Counted from the stretch's first letter, positions 41,841 to 62,303 are shown. The stretch: 64,000 nucleotides of DNA from Candidatus Bathyarchaeota archaeon (GCA_963733095.1 CAVTBV010000013.1:32001-96000), one strand, 5' to 3'. Notes: generated by a model from the letters alone, not told the origin. Numbers and translations: made by a program.

Positions 41841-41993
41841 CTTCCCTCTCCAAACTCAGACGAGATCAAACCCTATAACGCTAAATGGGGGAAACTAACA
41901 CAAATTTACCTGATAAAAAGATATCAAGGTAGGAACGAACCTAACTTACCCGCGGGTGGGTATGCTTGTGCTACAGTTTCAAGGTAAGTAGCC

Positions 41994-42764
41994 TCAATCA
42001 ATCTGAATGCCTGGATACCATTTTCTTGCTGTTTCCCAATAATATGTAAAGAGGTCCCGGCATAATTTGAGGAACTTCTCGTCTTTCCCAAAAAAACCAA
42101 TGTAATCCAGACCGCCGTTATGCGTGCGAAGAACAATATTAGCTTCTTTTTCACTGATTAACAGTGCAACAGGGACTTGTTCTATATACCTACTGCCCAC
42201 CAAAAGCTCTTCCTTGCTGTTTTTAAATTTTTTTGCTAGGGCTTTTGGCATAATGAACTTGAAGTCAAGACCCTTAGATACTTTTTCTTTTGTTGGTTGA
42301 ACGTGACTTGATTCAACCGTTTCACCCATGGCATAAATGAATTTTTCTGCGTCATAAACGATTTTTCGAACCCCGTTTAGGGTGGCTAAAGTGTCTCCAC
42401 AAAACTCTCCACCCGACAACTCACCAAGCCTGTTAACGAACTCATATGGAAGGGCGGAAACATTGTGTTCCAAGAAGTAATCTCCATTTTTCAAAATGAA
42501 ATTGAAACTTGACAGAAGACCCGTCGCCAAACTGCCCAAAGACGTTATTGCGTAGGTGCCGTCAACTTTTTTCTCCACCAACTTGGCTTCACTTAGCCTT
42601 TGCAGGTGCCTGAATGTCTCAGTTACTGTCATGTCAAGTGATTTGGATATTTGCTGCATCTTGAAACCTTGTTTTTCCACCTCAAAAAGTATGCTTGCCC
42701 TTCGGTTGCTGGCAAGCTCAAAAAGAACCTTGGAGATTTCCGATTCTTCTTCGCTCTTGGACAT
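41994..42764 (-). CDS. Winged-HTH regulator (COG4742/DUF1724-like), module 1
   Basis: LFELAS..R..IL, M......LD.T.TE.FR.L.RL, YFL.H....LP..FVNR.GEL, DLF.YYW. Confidence 0.82.
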   Translation of the reverse strand: MSKSEEESEISKVLFELASNRRASILFEVEKQGFKMQQISKSLDMTVTETFRHLQRLSEAKLVEKKVDGTYAITSLGSLATGLLSSFNFILKNGDYFLEHNVSALPYEFVNRLGELSGGEFCGDTLATLNGVRKIVYDAEKFIYAMGETVESSHVQPTKEKVSKGLDFKFIMPKALAKKFKNSKEELLVGSRYIEQVPVALLISEKEANIVLRTHNGGLDYIGFFGKDEKFLKLCRDLFTYYWETARKWYPGIQID

Positions 42765-42857
42765 GCTTATTTTTTCGCATCCTTGCAAACTTATTCGTAT
42801 TAACGTCAAATAAATCTTATCACAAAAGTTCGCTATCATTAATTCTGAGGAACAAAC

Positions 42858-43121
42858 ATGAACAACAAAGAAAGCGAAAATGATGAACGCGACTTCTCCA
42901 TCGAACTCGCCTCAAACAGGTATCTGATGCGGTTCTCAACCTCCTCAAACGGCGGTGCCTGCGGCGTCTTAATAGAAGGAACGCTTGGAAGACTTCGACA
43001 TGCCCTCTTTGTGGAACCTCAAATACTGGAAGTTAAGGGCAGCTGCGGAGTTCTCAGATTAAACTTGACATTTAACGAAGTTAAAGATCCAGTTAAAAAA
43101 ACTGGAGGTGAAGAACTATGA
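42858..43121 (+). CDS. Small beta-rich hypothetical protein, module 1
   Basis: FSIEL.S..VLIEGTLG.L....F.E..ILEV.G..GVLR; paralog at 50438-50695. Confidence 0.75.
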   Translation: MNNKESENDERDFSIELASNRYLMRFSTSSNGGACGVLIEGTLGRLRHALFVEPQILEVKGSCGVLRLNLTFNEVKDPVKKTGGEEL

Positions 43122-43351
43122 AGTTAAAAGAAAAAGTCATGTTCACCGTATTTGGAGTATTGATTTTCTTCATATCAGGCGGTGTTGCTTGCACATACGG
43201 TAGTACAGGCGCCGTTAACCCAGTCTTGGCAGTCACGCTAGGCGTTTTGGTTTTCTTCATTGCAGGTGCAGCCGCATGCACATACAGCAACAATAGAATT
43301 GCCCAACAGAAAATAAACCAAACCGTGCCTAAAGCAAGCGCTGAGGCATGA
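43118..43351 (+). CDS. 2-TM miniprotein with duplicated ACTY motif
   Basis: GVLIFFISGGVACTY / GVLVFFIAGAAACTY; GGAGGTGA SD, ATGA overlap. Confidence 0.7.
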   Translation: MKLKEKVMFTVFGVLIFFISGGVACTYGSTGAVNPVLAVTLGVLVFFIAGAAACTYSNNRIAQQKINQTVPKASAEA

Positions 43352-43369
43352 AAGGAGCCGACTTGTAAT

Positions 43370-43902
43370 TACTGAGATCAAAAGTCCTCCAAAGCTTTCT
43401 CTTTTTCTGTCGTAGCTGCAGTTTTGATTTTAAGTAATGCAGTACTCCTTGGCGTTGTAGCAGGGTGGTTTATTGGAATAATCCCTACCCTTCCAGGGTC
43501 CGCTGGTAATGATCCGGTGGTTCTGTACTGTCTTTCAGTTGCGGGGTCGGTGTTTGGGGTTCTGGTTTTACTTGGATGGAAAAAGAAGTACTTCTTAAGG
43601 GGTATCAGAGTTTTGATACCTTTAGATCAGTCATTAAGACTATAGCTGGAGACACTATAAAGGAAGTAATTCCACACAAGTCAGAAGAAAATGTCTTGGA
43701 GTTCATAAGAAAACATGGACAAGTTGCACCAGTTGAAATTCAGGTCTCTTTTGACTATTCAAATAAGGAAGTTCAGTCTATTATTGAAAGTTTAAACGCA
43801 AGGAATCTAATTCAAGTCATTCCGGCAGGAAATGGATCTCTAATAAAACTTTCAAAGGAACCTTCTTCTTGTGATTCAAATTCTGGTGTTTGCAGCATTT
43901 AA
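43370..43902 (+). pseudogene. Chimeric remnant: N-part of a membrane protein joined to a DsbA/YjbH-like C-terminal fragment
   Basis: Membrane frame (..IIPTLPGSAGNDP..) switches near 43575 to EKEVLLKGYQSFDTF...VLEFIRKHG.VAPVEI; neither part looks complete. Confidence 0.5.
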
Positions 43903-43970
43903 GAGTCGTGTAGCTTACTTTGAGCAAAACCTGACAAAGACAAACTTGAAAGACTTGGAATTTATGAAGT

Positions 43971-44050
43971 CAATTTAAGCTTAATTATTGAAAATATCTT
44001 CAAAAATAGGATTAAAATGAAAATAATGGCGCGGATTGTGAGAATTGAAC
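43971..44050 (-). repeat. Degenerate att core (21/24 match) plus left flank shared with 53024-53063
   Basis: TGGCGCGGATTGTGAGAATTGAAC at 44027-44050; flank 34/40 identical to 53024-53063. Confidence 0.75.
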
Positions 44051-44735
44051 ACCTTGTTTTTCCGCGGGTTATTTAATTTTTCCATGGTCGGTTATTATTT
44101 GACATGTGTGGTAGCCCGGAAGTTACCCTTCCCAGACTCGAATTTATTTCGAAAAATCCCTTTTTTATCTTATTGAAATCTACTATTAAAAAAGGTCACA
44201 ATTAAAACTAGAGTTAGGAATTGGAGTTGAACCCATATATGTTGGCGACATCGCCAATTCTGCTTCTCCTAAGCAGCTACTTTCTCTTTTTTTAACAATT
44301 CCTTCTATTCATTGGCGGGTATGGCAGGTTATCGCTCATGAACACAGGTCATTTGTACTTTTTCCCCTTTTTAGTATAAAAAAAAGTTTTTCGTGGAACT
44401 ACTATGAACTCCTGGCGTTATGCGATTTTAGTTTTCATTTAAGGCGTTCAAACTGGGCTGTGTAGGCTTCTTGTTAACGTTTACGATATTTGCATTATCG
44501 TAATGATTTTTTTCTCCTTAAGAATCTTTCCAGAAGCCTCAACAAACCATTGGAAGCAAAAATCTTTTCCGGTCAGATATATGACTGATTCGCGTTTCTC
44601 GCTTCATTTGATTTCCGCATTATTTATTTCGCTTTTAATTGGTAAGTACTGTCCTCTTTTTGAGACTCGCTACAAATAAGCAAAGCTTATTAGCCGGGTA
44701 TTAAACGCTTTTGTACCCAAAAGGAGAGAAGAAAA

Positions 44736-47435
44736 ATGCAATTTAAAACAAAAACAACTATTTTGATCGCAACATTTCTGATATTGACAATGGCTATACC
44801 TGCCATAATTCATCCTGCTAACGCACAGACTTCTAGCCAAATGAAATCATACGCTTTCATGGCGGTTGAGCCAAACCCAGTTGGTGTAGGTCAAACCACC
44901 TACATCGCAATGTGGGTTGACGTTCCACTACCTGGAGCATCAGAAGCCAACGATATCCGAAAGCATAACTATCTACTCACTATTACTGCACCCGACGGTA
45001 CTACACAAACACAAACTTGGGCTGTAGTTGCAGACACAACCGGTGCTCAATCAACATCCTTCACACCTACCCAAGTAGGAACCTACAAATTCGCCTTTAG
45101 CTACCCCAACCAAAATTACACATGGACCTCAGCAACTTACTTAGGTAACAACGCCTACACTGGCGTCATATTCTTAGGTGCCAATGCAACCGCAACCCTA
45201 ACAGTCCAAGAAAATCCAGTACCTCAAACACCAAATTCACCTCTGCCAAGTGAATACTGGACAAGACCAATTTACGGAGAAGATTTCAACTGGTACACTA
45301 TAGGATCACAATGGCTTGGAAGTGGTAGTTCCTATACTGCTGCCAGTAGCAACTACTTCGGCTCCTTCCAGCAAGGTGGTATGAACTTATGGCAACAAGG
45401 TGGAACAGGACCAGAAAGTTCACACGTTGTCTGGACAGCTCCATTTGAAGATGGAGGAGTCGTCGGCGGAATAAACACAGGTATCACTGGCGCAACCTTC
45501 TATTCAGGCGGTTCTTACGAAGGCAGATTCCAAAACGCATTGATTATAGACGGTAGACTCTACTACAAAGCACCATTAGGTGACCAAGTCAGCACAACTG
45601 CTACCGGCGCAGGGACCTATACATGCAGAGACTTACGTACAGGCGAAGTCCTTTGGACTAACGACAACATCAACCCAACATTCGGCGAACTATATGACTA
45701 CGAATCTCCAAACCAGCATGGAGTAGTTCCAAATGGCTACCTATGGCAAGCAGTAAGCCAATCATCTACAACACAGACATGGATAGCTTATGACTCATTA
45801 ACTGGCAAATGGTTATTCAATATTACCGATGTACCATCAACAGGCACAATCGCATATACCAGCCAAGGTGAAATCGTCAAATACATTCTAAGTTACAACA
45901 ACGCTGCAAAATCAGGTTGGCTAGCACTCTGGAACTGGACAAGTGCAAACGGAGTTCCTGCAAGTTCTACAACTGCTAATGGGGTACAATTAAATGGACC
46001 CGGATCAGGTACTAACTATCTACAGTTCAGACCAGTCGGCAGAATCATAAACGCAAGCACAGCATACTCATGGAACGTCACAATCGGCGACATAATGGGT
46101 CCATCAAACTCACAACTCGTTCCAGGCACTACAACAACGCAAAACCCAACAATACAGTATGTACTTCCAGGCGATTTACTATTTGGCACAACACCAAACA
46201 TTGCACCAGGTGTTCTATCAATAAGAGGCACCCCTAACCCATACACAGTTTGGACAATTAGCTTAGCAGACAGCGACAAAGGCACAATCATGTGGAAGAA
46301 AACATACGATGCACCAACAGGCAATATGACGCTCAATCTTGGCCCAATAGACCCAGTGAACCGCGTCTGGACCACGACTACCGCTGAAGACATGCAATAC
46401 CAAGGCTATAGTCTGGCTGACGGAAGTAAACTGTGGTCAACTAATACCGATGTACGCGCATTCCAATGGTTCAGCAGCGGCTCAGGCGCAGGCCAAAGAT
46501 GTGTAACTGCATACGGAAACATCTATACCCAAGGCTTCGGCGGCGAAATGTTTGCCTATGCAGCAAACAACGGCACTCTACTGTGGAAATTCAATGACAC
46601 AGCCAGCGGCATGGACACCCCTTGGGGTAACGTACCAATATTCATCGCTGCAATTGCAGACGGCAAAGTCTATGCATTCAACAACGAACACTCACCTAAC
46701 TCACCACTATACAAAGGATACAGCATCTACAGTCTAAACGCTACCACAGGCGAGGAAATCTACAAGATGCTCAGCTGGGCAGGACAAACCGGCGGACAAG
46801 GCTTAAGCACCTCTGTTCTAGCAGACGGCACACTAGTTTACTACAACTACTATGACAACTCACTCTATGCAATCGCTAAAGGTCCAAGTCAAACCACCGT
46901 AACCGCTTCACCGAAAGTCTCAACAAACGGTGACAAAGTCCTGGTAGAAGGCACAGTCACCGACATATCAGCAGGTACAAAACAAAACGAGCAAGCGGCA
47001 AGATTCCCTGCAGGCGTTCCAGCAGTCTCTGATGCAAGCCAAGCAGCATGGATGGAATACGTTTACATGAAACAAGAACGGCCAACCAATGCGACAGGCG
47101 TTCCAGTAACCTTAAGCGTACTCGACCCCAACGGCAACTACTACACTGTCGGCACAACCACAAGCGATTCAATGGGCAACTTCAAGCTGGCATTCACTCC
47201 ACAGGTACCGGGCGAATACAATATCTACGCAAACTTTGCAGGTTCTGGTGCATACTATGGTTCAGGCGCTGAAACCGCAATCGTCGTCGACAATACTGCA
47301 GCATCACCCACACCAGTCGCAACACAAGCACCATCAATGGCTGACCTATACTTTGTCCCAGGCATAATCGGCGTTATCATTGCGATAATCGTCGTTGGTG
47401 CGGTTCTACTCTTAGCTCTTAGAAAGCGTCCATAA
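44736..47435 (+). CDS. Large secreted PQQ-like beta-propeller surface protein with C-terminal TM anchor
   Basis: Signal peptide, PNPVGVGQ, PLP.EYWTRPI, DLRTGE.LW, IADGKVY....EHS, VTDISAGT.Q...ARFP.GVPAVSD, TM+RKRP. Confidence 0.85.
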   Translation: MQFKTKTTILIATFLILTMAIPAIIHPANAQTSSQMKSYAFMAVEPNPVGVGQTTYIAMWVDVPLPGASEANDIRKHNYLLTITAPDGTTQTQTWAVVADTTGAQSTSFTPTQVGTYKFAFSYPNQNYTWTSATYLGNNAYTGVIFLGANATATLTVQENPVPQTPNSPLPSEYWTRPIYGEDFNWYTIGSQWLGSGSSYTAASSNYFGSFQQGGMNLWQQGGTGPESSHVVWTAPFEDGGVVGGINTGITGATFYSGGSYEGRFQNALIIDGRLYYKAPLGDQVSTTATGAGTYTCRDLRTGEVLWTNDNINPTFGELYDYESPNQHGVVPNGYLWQAVSQSSTTQTWIAYDSLTGKWLFNITDVPSTGTIAYTSQGEIVKYILSYNNAAKSGWLALWNWTSANGVPASSTTANGVQLNGPGSGTNYLQFRPVGRIINASTAYSWNVTIGDIMGPSNSQLVPGTTTTQNPTIQYVLPGDLLFGTTPNIAPGVLSIRGTPNPYTVWTISLADSDKGTIMWKKTYDAPTGNMTLNLGPIDPVNRVWTTTTAEDMQYQGYSLADGSKLWSTNTDVRAFQWFSSGSGAGQRCVTAYGNIYTQGFGGEMFAYAANNGTLLWKFNDTASGMDTPWGNVPIFIAAIADGKVYAFNNEHSPNSPLYKGYSIYSLNATTGEEIYKMLSWAGQTGGQGLSTSVLADGTLVYYNYYDNSLYAIAKGPSQTTVTASPKVSTNGDKVLVEGTVTDISAGTKQNEQAARFPAGVPAVSDASQAAWMEYVYMKQERPTNATGVPVTLSVLDPNGNYYTVGTTTSDSMGNFKLAFTPQVPGEYNIYANFAGSGAYYGSGAETAIVVDNTAASPTPVATQAPSMADLYFVPGIIGVIIAIIVVGAVLLLALRKRP

Positions 47436-47447
47436 ATGAAAATCAAT

Positions 47448-47472
47448 GGGAAATATTTTCCCTCCCTTTTTT
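47448..47472 (+). terminator. Hairpin plus T-tract after the surface protein gene
   Basis: GGGAAA-TAT-TTTCCC then TCCC-TTTTTT, 13 nt after the stop. Confidence 0.5.
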
Positions 47473-47783
47473 AGTCTTAGTCTAAGCGTTTTAAATGGGC
47501 TCAGAGTGCTTCTGGAATAAATTTACGAAGTTCTTCCATCAAGGTACAATCGTAAAGTACGGTTTGGGTTCCACCCAAAGATTCCATAAAAAAATTACAG
47601 CTTTTGAACCTTAGAAAACAGCAGACAACTATATAGGATTCGGTCGTGGAGCTGGGGATGGATGGGAGTTGCATCCCTTTCAGTTGGAGACGTCTCCCTC
47701 AAGACTCCCATTTTTGTTAATTCAAGAGAAAAGAGAGATGGTAGAACAATCCAGTTTTTCTGATTGGAATAGCAATTAAGTTT

Positions 47784-48074
47784 TTATTTGCTGTAATCCT
47801 TTATCGGTGCAAGTGGTATGGTGGAAGTTTCAGTAACGCCTTCTATTAACCGAATCTTGTCTGCCACAAAATCTAAGGCGTTCGTGTTGGTGTCTGCTTG
47901 AAATAGAAGAGCGAAATCCCATTGTCCAAAAGCTCGGTATGCTTCCTCCAGCTTCACGCCTTCCACAGGTTTTTCGGTGAATTCCATTAATGGTTCATAA
48001 ACTTTTGCAGTCATATTAGGACTTAGTTTAATCATCAACAGATATTTCTGAACTGTTTTTTCCGTTTTAATCAC
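47784..48074 (-). CDS. GYD/Lrp-AsnC ligand-binding-like small protein
   Basis: YL.L.K, Y..FGQWDF, I..IEGV.ETST. Confidence 0.7.
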   Translation of the reverse strand: MIKTEKTVQKYLLMIKLSPNMTAKVYEPLMEFTEKPVEGVKLEEAYRAFGQWDFALLFQADTNTNALDFVADKIRLIEGVTETSTIPLAPIKDYSK

Positions 48075-48564
48075 CTTACGAAAACTTGAAGGTGTTTGAA
48101 TCTAAAAAATGTGTTGCTTAGCAGTTTAAAGTGAGAAAATCTGCCTCAAAACCCCTTTTTTAGTAGTTCTGTCACTTTGGATAATTAGAAATAAAGAGAC
48201 TTTTCACACAATCTGATTTGGGTTCAAATCCCCGGGGTCTTTACAGGTACTGATTTAACTGTAAATAGCAAATCTTAAGTGCAAATTCCAATAAACTTCT
48301 GTAAGCGGCGAGTTACATACAACATTTTTCATTGAGAATAGTAAGGATGAAATCTTTTTAAATCAGATTATATTAACTTAATAAAGAATCAAAAAGTTAT
48401 GTCTCATAATACGGGAAAAGAAGAACTTGTTAATACCCCTGCTGGACCAAGACCAAAAAATTCTGTGCACGCGATAAAACCTGGCGGAGTTATCCTAGAA
48501 GAGAAAGGCAGAATAAGTATCCAAGTCTGTAAAACCATAAAAAATCTCCAAGGCGAGCATAACG

Positions 48565-48921
48565 TTGACTTATCGTAAGATCAAAAGATGTGACTGGACA
48601 AAATCATTAACTTTCATAGGAATCTATGTAGCAGTCATTTCAATTACCGCTTTTATTCTGCTTGTCACATACTGGTATCTCTGGATAGTATTGGTAGTGG
48701 GCGGATTGTTTATCCTTGTCTTGTGGCACAAAAAATCCACTGCATATCACTGCCCAATATGCGGCAACGAATTCGAAATATCCTTCTTAACCGACTTCTT
48801 TAGCCCCCACGGAGTAACCAAAAACGGGGGCGGTTGGACCTACCTAAAATGTCCCAAATGCTCTAACAGAACAAAAATGGAAATACTTGTAAAGACAAAA
48901 AAACAAATAAAAACTAATTGA
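48565..48921 (+). CDS. 2-TM plus Zn-ribbon hypothetical protein
   Basis: Two TM, YHCPICGNEFEIS...SPHG...YLKCPKC. Confidence 0.7.
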   Translation: MTYRKIKRCDWTKSLTFIGIYVAVISITAFILLVTYWYLWIVLVVGGLFILVLWHKKSTAYHCPICGNEFEISFLTDFFSPHGVTKNGGGWTYLKCPKCSNRTKMEILVKTKKQIKTN

Positions 48922-49073
48922 AACAGAAGAATGGAAGCAGGCCAACGCAGAGGCAAAAAATTAAACGCTTAATCCAATTAGGCAAAAAACACGAGAAAAA
49001 ATAAATAGGATTGGGCTCAAATAAAAAAATTGGTTTGCGAGTAAAATCACGCGCGATAACCGGAAGACCGAAA

Positions 49074-49985
49074 ATGTCCTTTAGATTCAATATTAAACAG
49101 AACATTTACACAATAGGCAAAGTAAAGGTAGGCGGCCAGCCGGGGGAGCTTCCCACTTTTCTGATAGGCTCATTATTTTGGCTAGGTCAGAAAATCGTTC
49201 AAGACGCAAACAAAGGCCTTTTTGATGAACAGCAAGCAGAAAAAATAATCAACACCATGCAAACGCAAAGCGACATAACAGGCATAAAATTTGGCTTTGA
49301 CATAGTTGGAACAACCGAGATTGCCTTTGAGAAATACATAGACTTTGTAGCAAAACATACTGACGCCCCGTTGGTATTAGACGCGATGAGTCCTAAAGCT
49401 CGTATGGCAGCATCGAGCATGGTTAAAAAAATGGGGCTTGCAGACAAGTGCATATACGACTCAGTCTACAAGGGCGTTACAGAATCAGAAATTGCAAAGT
49501 TGAAGGAAAGTGGAATAGAGGCAGCAATTGTTTTAGCAGATAACCAAAAAGACAACAGCTTGGACGGAAAAATGGCTATAGTGCAGGAGGCGCTTGCATT
49601 AGCCAAAAGAGCCGGGATCACAAAACCGCTTATAGATACAGCTATTCCAGCATTTGCACCAGATATGGGTACATCAGTTAGAGCCATACCTGCCATGAAA
49701 GAGAAGTATGGTCATCCTGTAGGCTTGGGTAGCGGGAACGTTGTTACAACCATGGGTTGGGTAAAAGCCAACGTTGCTAAAGAATTTCGTAAGGGATGTG
49801 TAACCGCAACCAACTCGATAATGCAAACGGCAGGCGCTAACTATTTAATGTTCGGACCAGCTGAACAAGCTGAATGGGTATTCCCAGCCGTCGCAGTAAC
49901 TGTCACATACATTGCTTCAGCAGCAGCCGACCTTGGAACAAGACCCCTCGAAGAGTCTCATCCAATCTACAAAGCCTTCCTTTAA
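49074..49985 (+). CDS. mtrH: Stand-alone MtrH-family pterin-dependent methyltransferase
   Basis: F...Q....IG.VK.GGQPGELPT.L.GS.F...KIV.D..KG.FD, KPLIDTA, G.PVG.G..N, GA..L.FGP. Confidence 0.82.
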   Translation: MSFRFNIKQNIYTIGKVKVGGQPGELPTFLIGSLFWLGQKIVQDANKGLFDEQQAEKIINTMQTQSDITGIKFGFDIVGTTEIAFEKYIDFVAKHTDAPLVLDAMSPKARMAASSMVKKMGLADKCIYDSVYKGVTESEIAKLKESGIEAAIVLADNQKDNSLDGKMAIVQEALALAKRAGITKPLIDTAIPAFAPDMGTSVRAIPAMKEKYGHPVGLGSGNVVTTMGWVKANVAKEFRKGCVTATNSIMQTAGANYLMFGPAEQAEWVFPAVAVTVTYIASAAADLGTRPLEESHPIYKAFL

Positions 49986-50228
49986 ATTGCATAGCATCGC
50001 CCTCTTTTAGTTCTGTCTGAACACGACAAATTAGATGTATCCAAAAGCGCGCCTGATTGGTTCTCAATGACACGAGACCCAGTTTCTAGTTATAAACTTT
50101 TCAATTTAGGGACAAGCCAGCGCGGCGTTTCAAGGTTTGGTCAGGAAATCCATTTCTACGTCGCTCATGAACAAAGAAAAGCGAACATTGTAGCGGTCAA
50201 CGCTTTCAGTCGGTAATTCTGCTTTTGG

Positions 50229-50441
50229 TTATCCCGTCAACAATGCCTTTGAAACGAAGATAACGATTACGTCTGCGACTACCAAGATTCCAGTGCTTAT
50301 GGGCGTGAAGGTGCAGGTTGCTCTGTACCCTAATAGGCATGGTTTACTTGCTTGAGCGTTGGGTATAACTGTCTTAGCTGCCGCAACCGTCAGTGCAAGA
50401 ATGACTAATGCAAAAACTGCGATGAGTGTTGTTGCATTTAT
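50229..50441 (-). CDS. 70-aa 2-TM Cys-loop miniprotein, module 2 (ATA at expected start; absent from ORF track)
   Basis: INATTLIAVFALVILALTVAAAKTVIPNAQASKPCLLGYRATCTFTPISTGILVV..; overlaps upstream stop as ATAA. Confidence 0.6.
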   Translation of the reverse strand: MNATTLIAVFALVILALTVAAAKTVIPNAQASKPCLLGYRATCTFTPISTGILVVADVIVIFVSKALLTG

Positions 50442-50695
50442 TTCACCCCTTTAATCTCTTTCGGCAGTGCCATCTTGAACTCCTGTGGGCTGACGTCTAC
50501 ACGCAAAACGCCGTTGCTACCAACTATCTCCACGATTATCGCTTCAGCAAAATTCACTCGTTCCAAATCGCCTAAGACGCCGTCGATAAGAACGTTCTGA
50601 GATAAGTCATTGGTCAACGTTAGATTTTTGAGGTTAGCTTTTGATCTGAGTTCGATTGAGAAAGAACATGTTTTGTTTCTGGTTTCTTTTTCCAT
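50438..50695 (-). CDS. Small beta-rich hypothetical protein, module 2
   Basis: FSIELRSK..VLIDGVLG.L....FAE.IIVEIVG..GVLRVD; paralog of 42858-43121. Confidence 0.75.
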   Translation of the reverse strand: MEKETRNKTCSFSIELRSKANLKNLTLTNDLSQNVLIDGVLGDLERVNFAEAIIVEIVGSNGVLRVDVSPQEFKMALPKEIKGVK

Positions 50696-50804
50696 CTTTT
50701 GGTGCCTCAATAGCAGTAGAGGTAACGGAATGTGATTAGTTTTATTTGCTAAGCATGTGTAATATTTCACATTGAATCCAAATTCTTAACAAGAGTGGTT
50801 CGAA

Positions 50805-51524
50805 TTGAAGGAAGTTGAAGAGTTGGACAGGTTGTTCTTTGAGTTTGCGAGCGAAAGCAGGCTCAGTATACTCCGCATATTGCAGACTGAGAATTTAAAA
50901 ATGCAGGAAGTTGCTCGTCGACTAGACTTGACAGCGACGGAGGCTTTCAGACAGCTAGAAAGGCTCAGTGTCGCGATTCTGGTGCAAAGGCAACCCGATG
51001 GCTCTTACGCTCTAACACCATCCGGCAGACTCGAGCTGCACCTTGCCTCTTCGATGGGCTTCATTCTTAGCCACAAGCAGTACTTTTTAACCCATGACAT
51101 CTGGGAACTTCCCATGCAATTCGTAAATCGCATTGGCGAGCTCTCGCAAGCAATGCTGAAGATGGGCCTCATAGAAAGTACGTTTAAGTCTTCCCAGCTA
51201 ATTGGAGAAGCCAAGCACTATATGTGGGCCGTTTCACCTGAACTGCTACCCCAAACTTTTGAGGCGATAGCAAAACAAATCCCCAAAGGCGTACAATACA
51301 GAATCCTTTCTCCTCAGTCACCTGTGAAACTGCCGAATCTGGAAAACCGGACTCTGATTGACTGCCCAGCAATCTTTGCAATCACCGAAAATGAGGCCGC
51401 CTTGTGTTTCCGGTTTCTTGACGGAAGAGTGGATTATGCAGGCTTCATTGGGAATGACGATACCTTCCTCAGATGGGTCACAGACCTATTTCTTTACTAC
51501 TGGGATAAGGGAAAACGAGCGTGA
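50805..51524 (+). CDS. Winged-HTH regulator (COG4742/DUF1724-like), module 2
   Basis: Paralog of 41994-42764 (FE.AS..R, KMQ....LD.T.TE.FR.L.RL, FVNR.GEL, DLF.YYW). Confidence 0.82.
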   Translation: MKEVEELDRLFFEFASESRLSILRILQTENLKMQEVARRLDLTATEAFRQLERLSVAILVQRQPDGSYALTPSGRLELHLASSMGFILSHKQYFLTHDIWELPMQFVNRIGELSQAMLKMGLIESTFKSSQLIGEAKHYMWAVSPELLPQTFEAIAKQIPKGVQYRILSPQSPVKLPNLENRTLIDCPAIFAITENEAALCFRFLDGRVDYAGFIGNDDTFLRWVTDLFLYYWDKGKRA

Positions 51525-51881
51525 CGCAGCCCCAATTATTTCCAGCGTTATTTTGGGCTCATTTTCGTCCTTGGCGCGCTACTTTACCCCGATATTAAGT
51601 TTGAAGAATGTTGGTGATATCGCCTTATCTGGTCTTCCGAGGTTTTAAGATGCTTCTCCGTTTAAAATCAACTAACTCTATTCCCACTTGCCATTTGTTT
51701 GTTTAAACTGCATCTGAACCACACGGCAATCCTCGCACCAAAACATGCGCATCTTCGAGACAGGACTATAATGAGTGTCTTTGGTGTATCCTCTGGGTCG
51801 ATAAACTAGTTGGTTCGATTAAAGTTTGGGTCCCCCAATCAAAAGCGCGTGCCGTAACCGTAACTCACATCTGGATTTCTA

Positions 51882-52761
51882 TTAGAGATTTGAGAAAATT
51901 CCAATGAAGATGGGTATGTCGGTTCCTGCGTGCAATAGAATTGGTCCGATTATGCTGTCTGTTCTCCGCATAACATAACCTAACACCAAACCGAGAAGAA
52001 ACGTAGCGACAACAAGAACTGAAATGTATTGTGTGTACTGTGTTATGCCAATTCCAGCTACCGAGTGGCTGAGGGAAAAAATCAGCGCTTGCAAAAGGAT
52101 GGATAGACCGTTTCCCAGCAAACCCTCGAATTTTCTCAAGAAGAGACCAACGATACAACAGTTCCTCTCTCAATCCGTTAGCTAAAACAATTGGTAGTAT
52201 CCAAGGCATCCAGGAAACCAATTTTGATATCGTGAGGTTTTGACCCTCAAATAGATAATTGGCTCCTGGAATGGATAATGCAACAAACACAAGGAAACCT
52301 GCCAATCCAACGAGAACTCCAAGTCTTATTTTTCCCTTCGATAAAAAGACAGAGTACATGCTGCCACCGGAGAATCTCGTTAATACAATTATTGAGGTAA
52401 CTACTAGTGCAGTGCTTGATAGCATGGCTAAGACTATTCCATTCATTGTGGTGGTTTCAAAACCTAACCAGCCGCTAATTGCTTGCAAATTCAGTGCGAA
52501 AGAGGCGATGAAAAAAGCTATCGCGATTTGCCAATATTTCTTGAAACGCTTGTTTCTATAGAAAAATACTGCCAATGTTAGAAAGAAAAATGAGAGGATA
52601 ATTAAGTAAATTTGCCATAGACTATTTGGTATCAATGAGAAAGGAAAAATCAACAAACCAGACAGTGCCGGAAGACTTAGACCAAATACTAAGAAGATCA
52701 CGAACAACTCGACTCGGTACGCTGAAATGTGAATGGTTCCCATTGGTTTACCCGTCAACAA
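51882..52761 (-). pseudogene. CPBP/CAAX intramembrane protease with 1-nt frameshift
   Basis: EELLYR, then an extra T at about 52149-52150; GLFLRK..IFSLSH..S..G.ILLHAG.D continues in another frame. Confidence 0.8.
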
Positions 52762-57349: not shown

Positions 57350-58448
57350 ATTCTCGTCCCTACACCATTATATTTCAATGATGCTCGCATTTAAGACTTC
57401 TCACTAACAGAACATACGAGTTAGAATTTCATAAACTATCCCTTACTAACGCCATAACCCAATACTCAATAACCGTATATACAACTACAGATGCCCATCT
57501 GACTGTATCGACACCTTCTAGTCGATTATGTTTATTCACTAAGATGTCAATTTTATTTCTCTCATTCATATATTTGTTTATTTGTGTTATTTCATTACAA
57601 AGATTTCTTGTCTAGATTCCAACTGCATTTGCTCTATCGTCACATAATAGCATTTATATTATAGATTTGCTTATCTTTACATGCTACAAGGGTGTTACGG
57701 AAATCGTTTTACTCATGGAGTAGTCGGTTTAAAAACCTATTACAGAAGCGTCTGTACCTCAATGAGGCTAAGTGTGGATTAATGGCTAGTTCCCCTAGGC
57801 ATAGGCTTCAGGATATTAAGAACTAGTAAACAAGCAGATTAGTAAAACCGCTAGTGAAATTGCTATTAGGATAAACTATGTCTCTAGTGATGTATTATTT
57901 CTCTATTGATATAGTATGTCTTTAGTGTGTCTAAGTATATGCATTTATCCAAACCGTTCATCTAGCTTGGTTATCTGTCTGTTTTAGTTACCGACTTATT
58001 TTTATTAAACGGATTTTTGTAGTTAAATTGGGAAAATGATGTGGGAAGCATCTTTCGTTGTGTGAAATCTTGGTTAAAAGTTGAGTGTGGGTAAAATCTC
58101 TATGAAAGGTTGTTTTTGTAATTGTTATAAGAAAAAGAATAACTGTTGGAGAGATAAAAACCATTGCTACATGGATGAAACGAAACAAATCTCTAACAGG
58201 CATATTTAGTTGATGTAAGAGTGGTGAATTATTTAAGGGTTAGTGGTGAGTTGGTATAGATGCAAAGAAATCTCTAATTGTTGGTGTATTAGTTGGAATG
58301 TATTTTGTTGGAAATCTTTAGATGTGGGAAGTATAATTTTAGTGTAGATGAACATCTGGTAAATTAATCGATGAAGTGATTATAGGTCTATTTAGGTACA
58401 TATATTAGGGGGCATTTAGTAGTGTTTAAGTATGGGGGATAAGATGAT

Positions 58449-58811
58449 ATGAGTGAAATTGGGGATAATTATATAGCAGTTATTAATTCAGAAATAAAAG
58501 CTGGATTGTTAAAGTGTGATAAGTTGCAAACTATTGTAAAAGATGCTTTAGGAGAAGATGACTACCAAACGGCACGGCGGGCTGGGAATGAATTCCGAAT
58601 GGAAATTGCAGTTATAATGCAGAAGAATGATGAGCAGATGGTTGAGGTACTTAAAAGACAACGTGTAGATGCATTTGGTGGGTATATGCCAACAACGCTC
58701 TCAGGTGGGTCAAAAAACAGAGATGTTACAAAAAGTGATGATGAAAGTGAAATTATCAGCAGAATATTAAGAGGAGAAATCAAAAGTGTTAGAACGGCTA
58801 TGGAATCGTAA
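58449..58811 (+). CDS. Element hypothetical protein
   Basis: 120-aa ORF, first of a co-oriented cluster. Confidence 0.6.
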   Translation: MSEIGDNYIAVINSEIKAGLLKCDKLQTIVKDALGEDDYQTARRAGNEFRMEIAVIMQKNDEQMVEVLKRQRVDAFGGYMPTTLSGGSKNRDVTKSDDESEIISRILRGEIKSVRTAMES

Positions 58812-58845
58812 AAAAACGGGTAAAAAGGCAGTTGAGGTTACAGAA

Positions 58846-59016
58846 ATGCAAACAGCAATTCCTAAAGTGAATAGAGGCTGTGTTCGTTGTAGATATGCGA
58901 TTATAAAAGATGGTTGGCACGTTGAGTTAAACCGATGCCTTTCGAGGGGTTTGGTATTAGGCAAAGATATAACGAAAGAGGATGGCTGTGAGAAATTCAG
59001 TCCTTTGGAGGGTTAA
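58846..59016 (+). CDS. Small Cys4 (Zn-finger) protein
   Basis: CVRC...C...C; GAGG upstream of ATG 58846. Confidence 0.5.
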   Translation: MQTAIPKVNRGCVRCRYAIIKDGWHVELNRCLSRGLVLGKDITKEDGCEKFSPLEG

Positions 59017-59018
59017 AA

Positions 59019-59201
59019 TTGCCGAGGCGTATGGGGATTTATCCAAGAAAACCAATAAGCATAACTTTAGACGTTGAAACGATAGCAATGTTGCAAGCGG
59101 TTAAAACCGTAATGGGTATGAGTTCTTTGAGTTCTACGATTGAGGACTTATGTATTATTGGAATCAAGAATTCAAAATTTCCGCAAGGGAGTAGAGATTA
59201 A
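59019..59201 (+). CDS. Ribbon-helix-helix DNA-binding protein
   Basis: RKPISITLD.E....L......SLS..IE; GGAGG SD. Confidence 0.65.
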   Translation: MPRRMGIYPRKPISITLDVETIAMLQAVKTVMGMSSLSSTIEDLCIIGIKNSKFPQGSRD

Positions 59202-59202
59202 A

Positions 59203-59712
59203 ATGAGCGGAAACTTAATCGTAAAAGATTCATGCATAGAATGTAAACACGTTTCAGAAAAAATAGAGTTTGGTTACTGTGACTGTGACACTAACGATTA
59301 TTCAAAAGGAGAAAAATCGCAAGCCGAAATATCTTGGCTAAGACGACACGGCAAACTGTCAGAAATTAAAAAACCGTTAAGCTATACGATTGCTTCGGTT
59401 GAACAACCCTTAGAAAACGTAATTTCTGCAATGCAGAGGCTATCTGACGAAAGCGCTAGACTACACGGAATCACAAAATCGCTCAGTGATGACTTACAGA
59501 GAAAAAATCGTAAGAGAAAACTTAGATATACAAAATTGAAATTGGAAGTCTCAGTTTCTAAAAGGCTAGAAAAATCAAAGACGCAATTAGAAAAGGGTAA
59601 AAATGAGGTGCTGAAGAAAAGTGACAACTTTGTGGTTTTGGGTGCGCTTAATGGCATGAAAGGCGTTGAAATTACTGGATGGATTGAAAAGAAATTAGTG
59701 GATGGTAACTAA
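59203..59712 (+). CDS. Cys-motif plus coiled-coil hypothetical protein
   Basis: CIEC..CDC, basic coiled coil. Confidence 0.55.
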   Translation: MSGNLIVKDSCIECKHVSEKIEFGYCDCDTNDYSKGEKSQAEISWLRRHGKLSEIKKPLSYTIASVEQPLENVISAMQRLSDESARLHGITKSLSDDLQRKNRKRKLRYTKLKLEVSVSKRLEKSKTQLEKGKNEVLKKSDNFVVLGALNGMKGVEITGWIEKKLVDGN

Positions 59713-60112
59713 AATGGTTGGTAAGACAGAGAAGTTTATTTTAACTAGTGGGTTGCAGACTGTAGCGTCTGGGTTAGCAACTGCTTTTAGTGTCGATGGT
59801 ACGGGTAAGCTAAGGCATCTTAACATATTGAATGATGGTACGTCTGGTACAGTAACAGTTTGTATTTATTCTGATTCTGGGTTAGTAGTGACTTATGGCA
59901 CAGCTACGCTTGGTTCTGGTGGTTTCGTTCCTGATGTGGATATTATTGGGAGTGCATTGCAGGGGTCTGGTGCGGTTTTAGTTTCAGGTTCTCCAACATT
60001 GAATCAAGAAATAAGTTTCGTGACTAATTTGACAGTGCAGTATTTTAAAACTAGTGGTACAGTGACTTTGACGGGAATAGCGGACATTAACAAAAACATC
60101 ATTCAAACTTGA
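59702..60112 (+). CDS. Beta-rich Gly/Thr/Ser protein, possible virion structural protein
   Basis: Alternating-hydrophobic beta strands, few charged residues, no TM. Confidence 0.5.
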   Translation: MVTKMVGKTEKFILTSGLQTVASGLATAFSVDGTGKLRHLNILNDGTSGTVTVCIYSDSGLVVTYGTATLGSGGFVPDVDIIGSALQGSGAVLVSGSPTLNQEISFVTNLTVQYFKTSGTVTLTGIADINKNIIQT

Positions 60113-60136
60113 GCGAAATGAAGGAAGTAAATCTCT

Positions 60137-60385
60137 ATGGTAGTTTCACTCGGAATTTTACATAATAAAGTGAGACCTCGAAAGGCATGGGGTAGTCAAG
60201 ATTCCGTAAAATGCAGTGGATGCGGTAGGGTGCTTTTGACGAATGAACAGGTTTATCGTATTGGTAAACTCAGACAATCGTATGTTTATAGAGGATTTAA
60301 AATTGATTCAAAACAAGGATACCGCCTTAGATATTTTGGGGATTGTTGCATTAATCAAGTTTATGTTGATGGAGATGAAAAGTAA
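60137..60385 (+). CDS. Small Zn-finger-like protein
   Basis: CSGCG ... GDCC. Confidence 0.5.
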   Translation: MVVSLGILHNKVRPRKAWGSQDSVKCSGCGRVLLTNEQVYRIGKLRQSYVYRGFKIDSKQGYRLRYFGDCCINQVYVDGDEK

Positions 60386-60804
60386 TGAAAGATAAACCTA
60401 TTGTCCCAACCGAAAAAGAGTTGAAAGAGGATTATGGAAAGGCTAATTTACGTGAAAAGCATTTTAGGATTCATCCCGATATTGACGATTTGATTAAAAA
60501 ATACTCTAAGATTCTGAGACGTTCAGAGGCAGATATAGCTAATGAAATGATGAGAATTGGCATTTTATCGTTTCAATTGAAGCACGGGTTGCGGTCTAAG
60601 TTGGCACCGTTGATGATTGGTCGGGATTCAGATTTAACTAAACAGTTGAACGACAGAGTTAATTTGATTCTGGAAAAGAAAAAAGCGGAACGTGCAAAGA
60701 AGGCAAATGACCTAAGCGATGCGTTTAGTAAAAAGATAGCTCATGGTTCAAAGGAAGACTGGGAACAGTATAATGATTATAGCGGTAACGTTGAAGAGCA
60801 TTAA
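60385..60804 (+). CDS. Possible RHH-type DNA-binding protein
   Basis: KHFRIHPDIDDLI...SEADIANEMMR. Confidence 0.5.
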   Translation: MKDKPIVPTEKELKEDYGKANLREKHFRIHPDIDDLIKKYSKILRRSEADIANEMMRIGILSFQLKHGLRSKLAPLMIGRDSDLTKQLNDRVNLILEKKKAERAKKANDLSDAFSKKIAHGSKEDWEQYNDYSGNVEEH

Positions 60805-61140
60805 TTTACTAGGTAATCTAAGATAGGGGGATTTTTAAGAGTAAAAAAACGGTTATTGTGATACATCTTTCCATGGAAAAACAGATAGAGATTGAATAGA
60901 ACAGTAATGAATAGCATGGTAAAATCCCTATGTAATAACCTATGTGTCAATGTCAATAGGGGTATGGCTGGGACTGTGGACGATGGTATTTCTTATTTAG
61001 TGAATTTATGTTCTCGGTTATTTTTGAGGTTTGCTGTTTAGTTAACAGGTCGGGGGCTACAGTATTACGTGTTTCTGGGATTTTTGTGAGTTTTTTGTCC
61101 TGCAACATTTTAAATACCTAAAGCAATAATAGGAGATTTT

Positions 61141-61818
61141 ATGAGTGAAGAGGATTCTATTTTTGACAAGCTAATGGATAGAATTATTTATGTTCTTATA
61201 ATAGTCGCTGTGATAACAGGAGTTGCTGATTATTTTCGTGATTCTTTAGGCACTTGGTTTCGTCAAAATTGGATAGGTGTTACAGTAGCGGTTGGTGTAT
61301 CTTTTCTAGTATGGTTTTTAGTTTTGATATTGCAAGTTTTCTTAGAAGGCTCAAGTGAATATGGTAAGAAAGTGAAGTTAAAGAAATCAATTATAAGAAA
61401 AAGAATTCTGAAGGAAAGACTCAAAGAACTTGAAGGTCTTGATTTGACAACAGAAGAAAAAGAGTTACAGATTAGTGAATGGGTTGAGAAGGCGTATCAT
61501 AACGAAATTTTAGGTATCTCTACATCAGCATCAACGGAGTCTAAAATAGAACCAGATGTCGAAAAAGTCCCATCTTTATCACAGAGAGAGAAAGAAATAA
61601 TGATAAACAAAGTTAGTACTCGATGCTGTTATCCGAATTGTAGGGAGTCCATCTCTTTAGAGGTACACCATATAATACCGAGAAGTGAAGGCGGAACAAA
61701 CAAAGAAAATAACTTAATTGTTTTATGCAATAATCACCATCATTTAGCAGACAGAGGCGCAATTTCAAGAGATAGATTAAAAATGTACAGCGTAGCAAAA
61801 ATGAAAGATGAATTTTGA
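61141..61818 (+). CDS. HNH endonuclease with two N-terminal TM helices
   Basis: RCC.PNC....LEVHHIIP.SEGG.N..NNLI.LC.NHH. Confidence 0.85.
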   Translation: MSEEDSIFDKLMDRIIYVLIIVAVITGVADYFRDSLGTWFRQNWIGVTVAVGVSFLVWFLVLILQVFLEGSSEYGKKVKLKKSIIRKRILKERLKELEGLDLTTEEKELQISEWVEKAYHNEILGISTSASTESKIEPDVEKVPSLSQREKEIMINKVSTRCCYPNCRESISLEVHHIIPRSEGGTNKENNLIVLCNNHHHLADRGAISRDRLKMYSVAKMKDEF

Positions 61819-61991
61819 AGTATTAGAATATTCAATTATTAAGGCATATCTGATATGATTGGATTACGTATGGGCTCTAGCAAAATAGCTAGGCAATACA
61901 TCTGAGTTAATGGGTTAATTTTTAGGACTTTTATTGGGTGGAAACTCTTATATGCTTATAGGTGTATGATTATGTTGGAAGGGATAAGAAA

Positions 61992-62303
61992 ATGGTTAAC
62001 GATTATGAATTTGAAGAAGTGGAAAATCTCCCTACAGTAAAAAGAAATAGAATTGGATTGTACACGACTCTTTTAGAACAGTTTAATGCTAGCGGTAAAT
62101 CTAAGGTTCGGTTGAATTGGAAAGGCAAAGCCGCTCTAGACACGGTGGCTGTCAGTTTAAGAAAAGCAGTTAAGATTAATCCATCGTTGAAAGTTGACGT
62201 TATGTCTGTAAGCAAAATAAATCCAGATAGCAAAAAACGAGAAGTCTGTGAAATCTATCTGTCTAAAACTGTAGAAACAGAACATAAAAAGAAGAGTAGG
62301 TGA
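61992..62303 (+). CDS. Small basic hypothetical protein directly upstream of int(N)
   Basis: 103-aa Lys-rich ORF; TATA-like CTTATATG upstream. Confidence 0.6.
   Translation: MVNDYEFEEVENLPTVKRNRIGLYTTLLEQFNASGKSKVRLNWKGKAALDTVAVSLRKAVKINPSLKVDVMSVSKINPDSKKREVCEIYLSKTVETEHKKKSR

Follow-up and report, generated by a model that had tools for sequence, protein, structure and literature searches.

Two diverged copies of a regulator and beta protein cassette with a variable third gene in a Bathyarchaeota genome

Genes and control regions of the two modules

A stretch of 64,000 nucleotides from Candidatus Bathyarchaeota archaeon (GCA_963733095.1 CAVTBV010000013.1:32001-96000), which as a whole is called the window here, contains two similar gene modules, each made up of a winged-helix regulator, a small protein of beta strands (the beta protein) and a miniprotein with two transmembrane (TM) helices. 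Analysis of the open reading frames (ORFs) located both modules where the original prediction had placed its duplicated layout, module 2 being the mirror image of module 1 (Table 1). In both modules the regulator lies directly upstream of the beta gene and the next gene starts at the beta stop codon, and these two features are taken here as the mark of the cassette. The two regulators share 34% identity over 244 residues (E 5e-54) and the two beta proteins 41% identity over 78 residues (E 1e-13); both pairs are therefore paralogs, as had been proposed, and the miniproteins of the two modules, proposed to be unrelated, gave no alignment at E <= 100. The likeness of the two modules exceeds chance by far. 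The modules of the window are two copies, long since diverged, of a cassette that is conserved in archaea and consists of regulator, beta protein and a variable third gene.

Table 1. Positions of the genes and control regions of the two modules, counted from the first nucleotide of the window
Feature	Position	Strand	Description
Regulator 1	41994-42764	-	256 aa; start at the 26th codon of the longest ORF, where the alignment of its relatives begins
Regulator 1, longest ORF	41994-42839	-	281 aa
Divergent control region 1	42765-42857		between regulator 1 and beta protein 1
Beta protein 1	42858-43121	+	87 aa
Type-A miniprotein	43118-43351	+	77 aa, 2 TM
Type-B miniprotein	50229-50441	-	about 70 aa, 2 TM; open frame 50229-50450
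Beta protein 2	50438-50695	-	85 aa
Divergent control region 2	50696-50804		between beta protein 2 and regulator 2
Regulator 2	50805-51524	+	239 aa, TTG start

The regulators had been described as COG4742-like, and domain analysis bears this out. Regulator 2 matches FilR1_middle (PF08350, formerly DUF1724) above the Pfam cut-off (29.3 bits, cut-off 27), and regulator 1 matches both HVO_A0261_N (28.7 bits) and FilR1_middle (25.6 bits) slightly below theirs. The winged-helix model HVO_A0261_N matches the regulators at E 1e-6 to 3e-8, below its cut-off, and several further helix-turn-helix (HTH) models match as well. The Msr regulators of Methanosarcina are presumably members of the same DUF1724 family. 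Comparison of a profile of 30 regulators (alignment A3) with PDB sequences revealed the C-domain of TrmBL2 (5box, E 1.6e-9) at profile positions 126-248 and chains of the ArsR/SmtB type at positions 4-81, the latter at E 4e-5 and weaker. The alignment by hhalign of the regulator profile with full-length TrmB of a related genome was weak (E 0.035, probability 1.4%) but colinear, positions 43-248 corresponding to residues 69-277, and it extends no further than residue 277 of 389, short of the beta-barrel subdomain. At E <= 0.1 the window regulators matched neither a receiver (REC) domain nor PF11495 (Regulator_TrmB), and their DUF1724 core ends with the protein (239 and 256 aa). The close relative in locus L112 passes the PF11495 cut-off narrowly (23.3 bits, cut-off 22.2). 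The metalloregulator model NF033788 (ArsR/SmtB) gave 28.2 and 28.9 bits with the window regulators against a cut-off of 55.

Judged by these matches, the regulators are a winged helix joined to a DUF1724/TrmBL2-like core with no C-terminal input domain, that is, the bare core of the superfamily. Passages of one source (PMC4158304) describe the second subdomain of TrmB as a seven-stranded beta-barrel with six of the seven sugar contacts, and TrmBL2, TrmBL3 and MreA as proteins without the C-terminal regulator domain. FilR1 is given in part of another source (PMC5847659) as a winged HTH followed by DUF1724 and a C-terminal REC domain. Going by these descriptions and by the point at which the TrmB alignment ends, the input module of two characterised relatives, TrmB and FilR1, sits exactly where the window regulators end. 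The TrmBL2/MreA type of Thermococcales and Methanosarcina shares with them, as far as described, an N-terminal winged helix and the first alpha/beta effector subdomain and nothing beyond. TrmBL2 differs in being an abundant chromatin protein and global repressor in the account of PMC4158304, whereas the window regulators are locus-specific members of a divergent pair with a small beta protein. The winged HTH and DUF1724 core also recurs in the DUF1724 regulators of methanogens and in FilR1 of Methanosaeta harundinacea; unlike the window regulators, FilR1 carries a C-terminal receiver domain and takes its input from the kinase FilI, according to the relevant passages of PMC5847659.

The beta protein had been reported as having no described function, and our searches agree with that statement. 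Neither beta protein matched a Pfam or NCBIfam family at E <= 0.1, and the best PDB sequence reached E 0.17. With two beta models, Foldseek on the PDB returned nothing at E <= 0.001 (best E 0.76) and VIA-align over 48,161 chains gave best Z scores of 2.9 and 3.2, both to single propeller blades. The top structural matches were single beta-propeller blades and PH/EVH1 domains, which we read as generic antiparallel sheets, and no TrmB chain was among the matches listed. The ESM Atlas gave a best score of 0.76, to unnamed viral clusters, and no lead. Weak or missing matches of this kind do not prove novelty; no described family or fold has been recognised for the beta protein so far.

The beta family is large and conserved. 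A word-based search found 124 relatives, all annotated as 'hypothetical', the named ones coming from metagenome-assembled genomes (MAGs) of Bathyarchaeota and Thorarchaeota. An exhaustive profile search at E <= 1e-3 found 453 clusters at 50% identity, 222 of them at E <= 1e-10, and ten cluster representatives that were looked up were either metagenomic entries annotated 'hypothetical protein' or unnamed. Beta protein 2 scores 97 bits against the family profile. The conserved positions are F13, E16, S19, E40, G41, G44, L57, E58, G61, G64 and R67; 10 positions are conserved at 90% or more over 130 diverse sequences, and the family alignments contain no conserved cysteine or histidine. The AlphaFold2 model consists of six antiparallel strands and a short helix, with a mean predicted local distance difference test score (pLDDT) of 79.8 from 37 sequences and 83.8 from 130 sequences (82.8-83.8 for the five models of the larger alignment). 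The open sheet of this model suggests that the protein may associate with a second copy of itself or with another protein. A third, truncated beta copy without an adjoining regulator lies just upstream of the window (L003 1459-1692, minus strand; about 27340-27573 of contig G000:C13), upstream of a DUF4386 membrane gene (L003 506-1165, E 1e-46); its downstream gene is of the class found at L054.

Analysis of the control regions revealed shared elements. In control region 1, two direct repeats (TTCGCAT at 42774-42780, TTCGTAT at 42794-42800) are followed by the element CAAATAAATCTTATCAC at 42807-42823 and by a GAGG ribosome-binding site at 42847-42850; control region 2 contains the element CAAATAAAACTAATCAC (50748-50732, minus strand). 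The pattern CAAwTAAA-N2-4-wATC, often with a TATCAC end, was found in 30 of 48 distinct upstream regions, compared with a mean of 0.39 and a maximum of 3 after shuffling. This A/T-rich element occurs 76-92 nt (median 87) before the FSxEL codon, and between it and the regulator start codon are two direct repeats about 20 nt apart. The repeats are TTTCGCAyCC and TTTCGyAT in the type-A clade and pairs of TTCACA or TTAGCA in the other clade; in an Asgard clade apart from these, a different inverted repeat, TCAAGCTCAATCTTGA, is conserved in the corresponding position. From position and conservation, the A/T-rich element probably serves the beta operon as its TATA region, and the repeats are a putative operator, which would lie upstream of the beta promoter and inside the short leader or promoter of the regulator itself. 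In a passage of PMC4158304, TATCAC is a half-site of the TGM motif of TrmBL1/Tgr (TATCAC-N5-GTGATA); that motif is a palindrome, whereas only the half-site closes the element conserved here. A scan of 41900-51700 for bacterial-type promoters and terminators returned 16 and 9 sites against 17.5 and 10.6 expected, a result from bacterial models that is uninformative for an archaeon.

Both miniproteins are encoded by single-copy genes in the genome. The type-A miniprotein contains the internal repeat GG-x-A-C-T-Y, both cysteines are invariant in 15 of 15 distinct type-A sequences, and its ATG overlaps the stop codon of beta protein 1 (ATGA). The type-B miniprotein carries a Cys-x7-Cys loop, with one cysteine invariant (5/5) and the other present in 4/5 sequences; its four relatives, which make it a true family, are located downstream of beta genes in L010, L011, L015 and L018. 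In the window, none of the start codons ATG, GTG and TTG occurs in the type-B frame before the first TM helix; an ATG does lie nearby, at 50437-50435, but is shifted by one base from the frame. In the junction alignment with the orthologous loci L010 and L011, their AAATGA corresponds to AAATAA in the window. The overlap of module 2 has therefore changed from ATGA to ATAA by one G-to-A substitution, which kept the beta stop codon as TAA and left ATA (50441-50439) as the start of the miniprotein. A frameshift was considered as the cause of the missing start and rejected, because the ATAA of the window aligns with the ATGA of both loci. A contig from another public run is identical to the window over 50433-50734 (one of four DNA runs, with patchy cover elsewhere). 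The purine-rich AGGGGTGA is still present upstream of the type-B frame and aligns with the GGAGGTGA ribosome-binding site of other loci; the type-B miniprotein may be weakly translated by re-initiation, or its gene may be decaying.

In the window (43094-43121) and in related loci, the final codons of the beta gene include the GGAGGTGA ribosome-binding site of the gene that follows. The site falls together with the codons for the conserved Gly-Gly-Glu tail of the beta proteins, so that some of the conservation at the C-terminus probably reflects the RNA rather than the protein.

The gene for the type-A miniprotein is followed by a 73-aa membrane ORF (43424-43645, plus strand) with the motif PTLPGSAGND, which looks shortened; the matching third gene in a genome of the same genus encodes 174-202 aa with a weak DUF6114 match. 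It is overlapped by a 108-aa ORF (43576-43902, plus strand) with a weak winged-helix match (DUF7343).

Distribution, gene neighbourhood and inheritance

A narrower version of the beta profile detected the family in 13 of 401 sampled genomes of the window's phylum. The beta profile also matched 2 of 301 genomes of the phylum of a Thermoplasmata MAG and 30 of 301 genomes of the phylum of a Thorarchaeota MAG, 21 of the latter at E <= 1e-18. A pattern scan of species-representative genomes found 18 loci, nine in Bathyarchaeota/Bathyarchaeia, seven in Thorarchaeota and one each in Promethearchaeota and Thermoplasmata. The beta family is patchy in its occurrence and spans three archaeal phyla.

The survey of neighbouring genes covered 58 distinct beta genes, the two of the window included, from genomes of Thermoplasmata, Asgard and Bathyarchaeia-like archaea. 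Three loci had too little upstream DNA for the regulator to be judged, and among the remaining 55 a regulator was found directly upstream of the beta gene in 46, divergent in 40 and co-directional in six. The pairing outlasts changes of gene order (L019, L074-L078) and changes of the downstream gene across 16 classes. The downstream gene, classed for 49 distinct beta genes, is a type-A miniprotein in 15, a PNPOx-like protein in seven, Flavodoxin_5 in five and a type-B miniprotein in five (the window's own included). The 12 further classes include a Fer4 membrane protein, ArsC-like LMWPc, DUF1269, DUF4386, an ABC ATPase, an ICMT-like methyltransferase, DUF6114 with an alpha/beta-hydrolase and several unnamed membrane proteins. 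Even within the type-A clade, L040 has a flavodoxin and L036 and L044 have a four-TM protein in place of the miniprotein. The third position is in this sense the swappable slot that had been proposed. The accompanying expectation that the beta gene would consistently stand beside both a regulator and a cysteine miniprotein stood for the regulator and failed for the miniprotein, which follows only 20 of 49 beta genes. Hence the constant unit is regulator plus beta protein and not the trio.

The pairing was also analysed from the side of the regulator. Six matches to the regulator profile were found in the genome of the window; the only full-length ones are regulators 1 and 2, both paired with a beta gene. 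Regulator matches in the 401-genome sample fall into two score tiers. In the tier of at least 240 bits a beta gene adjoins the regulator in 10 of 11 fetched loci (L103-L113, L112 being the exception), and in the tier of at most 210 bits, which comes mostly from one family of small genomes, no beta gene was found at E <= 0.1 in any of 19 fetched loci (L114-L132). The profile was built from beta-linked regulators, so that their higher scores arise partly by construction; the all-or-none split is still clear.

Quick trees (LG+G4) were built for 43 pairs with a regulator of at least 230 aa, the other 15 of the 58 beta genes being excluded. Patristic distances in the beta and regulator trees correlate at r = 0.88, compared with a maximum of 0.38 in 500 permutations. 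The two modules of the window belong to separate clades, both well supported: a 17-row clade (support 100) for module 1, in which Bathyarchaeia are mixed with Thorarchaeota and Promethearchaeota, and a four-row clade of type-B loci from the window's order for module 2. It follows that either the duplication is old or each module was acquired on its own. Copies from Bathyarchaeota and Thorarchaeota are 62-70% identical to regulator 1, compared with 34% for regulator 2, and by these trees and identities the type-A cassette has crossed phyla. In one Bathyarchaeota MAG of the same genus, three nearly identical type-A cassettes (L029, L030, L031; also G366) lie on three contigs, one of them 2.2 kb long, which suggests recent duplication or a mobile context.

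Genes for CPBP proteins recur in these neighbourhoods. A CPBP/Rce1-like intramembrane protease gene (51865-52761, minus strand) adjoins regulator 2 and is apparently split by a frameshift: its 298-aa ORF contains the EExxxR motif region and ends in nonsense, and an 85-aa ORF in another frame (51882-52139) has an Rce1-like match at E 8.6e-12. CPBP genes occur near beta genes in eight other loci, in addition to a CPBP-beta fusion (P0122).

Among the regulator-less Asgard variants L061, L064 and L066 (genomes G854, G792 and G977), L064 has an operon of histidine kinase, beta gene, PNPOx-like gene and CPBP protease gene, followed by a convergent 636-aa gene. L066 has no gene of about 411 aa before its beta gene and carries a 755-aa gene comparable to the 636-aa gene of L064, both with N-termini that resemble an ArsR-type HTH by eye.

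Possible roles of the beta protein

Beyond its observed anatomy, conservation, co-inheritance and family assignments, the cassette can be interpreted as an autoregulated unit: the beta protein would serve the regulator as a constant partner, accessory or input, and the third gene would supply a plug-in output. We give this interpretation a probability of roughly 45%. The regulator would bind the direct repeats in the control region of about 95-110 bp that it shares with the divergent beta operon, and would in this way control both its own promoter and that operon. The first gene of the operon encodes the beta protein, of 85 aa and six predicted strands, and the second gene, which would be translationally coupled to it, provides an output that differs by clade; in the window the proposed outputs are the two unrelated two-TM cysteine miniproteins. 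The beta protein would be a dedicated accessory subunit in contact with the regulator, either delivering a signal in trans or exerting feedback on it, and would stand where FilR1 has its fused receiver domain and TrmB its fused sugar-binding beta-barrel. The output genes hint that the signal may belong to a redox or xenobiotic stress response.

Four observations favour this interpretation: the pairing survives changes of gene order and of the downstream gene; it is reciprocal for this clade of regulators; the regulator has no input module of the kind its relatives carry; and at least one regulator-less locus, L064, has a histidine kinase beside its beta gene. A conserved gene of about 411 aa precedes the beta gene directly in the regulator-less Asgard loci L061 and L064; the L064 copy matches histidine-kinase domains, and L061 has the homologous gene in the position of the kinase.

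Known systems offer partial parallels. In CopY-CopZ and ArsR-ArsD a repressor gene stands next to a gene for a small protein (70-120 aa) from which both the regulator and the downstream machinery receive the signal molecule, and small partners like CopZ and ArsD bind metals through cysteine motifs. The beta protein differs from them in its lack of conserved cysteine or histidine and in its all-beta predicted structure. The TrmB sugar sensor of Thermococcus/Pyrococcus is comparable by analogy only: as described in part of PMC4158304, it combines a DNA-binding core with a beta-rich ligand module of about 85 residues. In TrmB this barrel is fused to the core, whereas the beta protein is encoded by a separate gene and has no detectable sequence similarity to TrmB. 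The idea that the beta protein is a detached TrmB barrel was rejected on that ground, a comparison by hhalign of the beta profile with full-length TrmB having given no similarity (probability 0.15%), and TrmB is retained as a functional analogy.

Several results weigh against an input partner, the missing similarity to TrmB among them. Nine of the 55 assessable beta genes have no adjoining regulator (L014, L017, L020, L043, L053, L061, L064, L065, L066); L053 keeps a 33-aa regulator remnant, a downstream gene, for instance PNPOx or flavodoxin, is present even at the regulator-less loci, and extension of three of the nine to about 9-10 kb revealed no regulator anywhere. Neighbouring genes are co-inherited in any case, so that the correlation of distances alone is no proof of interaction, and because the genomes surveyed are related, their loci do not count as independent samples. 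The downstream gene is nearly clade-specific, with 13 changes for 13 classes on the regulator tree (38 labelled rows). It is also the gene to which the beta gene is most tightly coupled, its ORF starting within 7 nt of the beta stop codon in 41 of 49 cases and overlapping in 32 (starts were taken as the first ATG, GTG or TTG of the open frame, so that a few overlaps are possibly overstated); such coupling fits a role on the downstream side equally well. The only two fused forms of the beta domain that were found, with a CPBP protease (P0122) and with a SAM (S-adenosylmethionine) methyltransferase (P0273), join it to enzymes of the output type and not to a regulator. A search for longer fused relatives gave one match, the methyltransferase fusion, and no regulator-beta fusion among the best 150 of 453 representative matches, which makes it a weak blank. 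Complex prediction for regulator and beta protein from separate alignments and without controls scored 0.00 in two runs and is uninformative either way.

Much of this evidence bears on an alternative that we regard as rather unlikely, in which the beta protein acts on the downstream side as a general helper in the cytoplasm, for example as an adaptor, as an assembly or stabilising factor or as an upstream cistron driving re-initiation, and the regulator merely switches the operon on. The close spacing and overlaps, the GGAGGTGA ribosome-binding site within the last beta codons, the downstream genes retained at loci without a regulator and the two enzyme fusions all argue for it. The partners are too varied for one specific binder, ranging over soluble flavoproteins, proteins with two to seven TM helices, an ABC ATPase and a phosphatase-like protein, and the ten positions conserved along the beta sheet exceed the needs of a coupling device. 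Each fusion, moreover, rests on one cluster (of one and two member sequences), and in overlapping genes a single-base error could create such a fusion.

Invariance itself points in another direction, since the beta protein is the sole invariant product of the operon and might be the main product of the regulon, a stand-alone stress effector that forms oligomers and binds or buffers a small ligand or ion, with the downstream genes as optional additions. The open six-stranded sheet, which resembles no compact known fold and finds its best match in propeller blades, suggests self-association, and the conserved charged residues E16, E40, E58 and R67 would suit such a role. We consider it quite unlikely, because the family has no conserved cysteine or histidine on which metal or thiol chemistry could obviously rest, because the searches recognised no family or fold that binds ligands, and because a stand-alone effector leaves unexplained why this regulator subfamily, and not its paralogs, travels with the beta gene. 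That the likeness of the modules is a recent local duplication or an annotation artefact with no functional meaning is extremely improbable. The lost ATG of the type-B miniprotein and the truncated beta copy outside the window do indicate some decay, but each module is less similar to the other than to relatives in further genomes and phyla, as the identities of regulator 1 illustrate, and a family of this many clusters already contradicts the idea.

The nature of the signal had been predicted to be redox or metal sensing, and this claim is borne out only in part. Many downstream genes encode flavin or Fe-S proteins (Flavodoxin_5, PNPOx_N, Fer4), ArsC-like LMWPc is among them, and an arsenite-methyltransferase-like gene (named by eye) and an ArsC-like gene occur in two loci, so that the downstream genes lean towards flavin, Fe-S and thiol chemistry. 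The absence of conserved cysteine and histidine from the beta protein and the low ArsR/SmtB scores of the regulators count against the prediction. A redox or xenobiotic stress theme is plausible but unproven, and the gene content is suggestive only.

The interpretation of the beta protein as an input partner can be extended further, to a split transcription factor. A clade of TrmB/DUF1724 regulators may have moved its signal-input module into a separate beta protein of 85 residues, whose fold has found no match so far, and the resulting two-gene sensor unit may move between Bathyarchaeia, Thorarchaeota and Thermoplasmata, picking up outputs at one fixed junction, the beta stop codon. It would then be a modular and portable sensor with a socket for outputs. 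This extension is tentative, and we judge it somewhat unlikely in this full form.

Surroundings of the modules and meaning of the cassette

Other features of the window were noted around the modules. A stand-alone gene for an MtrH-family methyltransferase (49011-49985, plus strand; PF02007, E 2.9e-76) lies between them and is convergent with module 2. The gene at 44736-47435 (plus strand) encodes a secreted protein of 899 aa that is anchored at its C-terminus and has PQQ-like beta-propeller and Ig-like domains, and many variants of it were found among public contigs. The stretch 58000-62000 has low G+C (0.35-0.37), strongly positive GC skew (0.31-0.38) and few long ORFs, and the ORF at 61141-61818 contains an HNH nuclease-like motif as judged by eye; this stretch may be a foreign or mobile insert.

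The regulator family and divergent regulator-operon pairs are known. As far as the literature was searched, there is no description of the beta family, of its constant position next to one clade of regulators or of the third gene that can be exchanged. The papers found on the regulator family describe no small partner protein, which is weak evidence given that the beta protein has no name to search by.

Gene regulation in uncultured Bathyarchaeia and Asgard archaea is almost unstudied, and the cassette offers a target family of at least 453 clusters without annotation or recognisable fold, together with a predicted operator. The near-identical architecture in Bathyarchaeia and Thorarchaeota, with regulators that are 62-70% identical, is a clean case of the transfer of a whole regulatory unit between phyla. 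If the beta protein serves the downstream proteins instead, it would be a new general helper for small membrane and flavin proteins. If it is a trans-acting input subunit, it would explain how 'sensor-less' TrmBL2-like regulators receive signals, and the cassette would be a portable archaeal switch with an exchangeable output gene.

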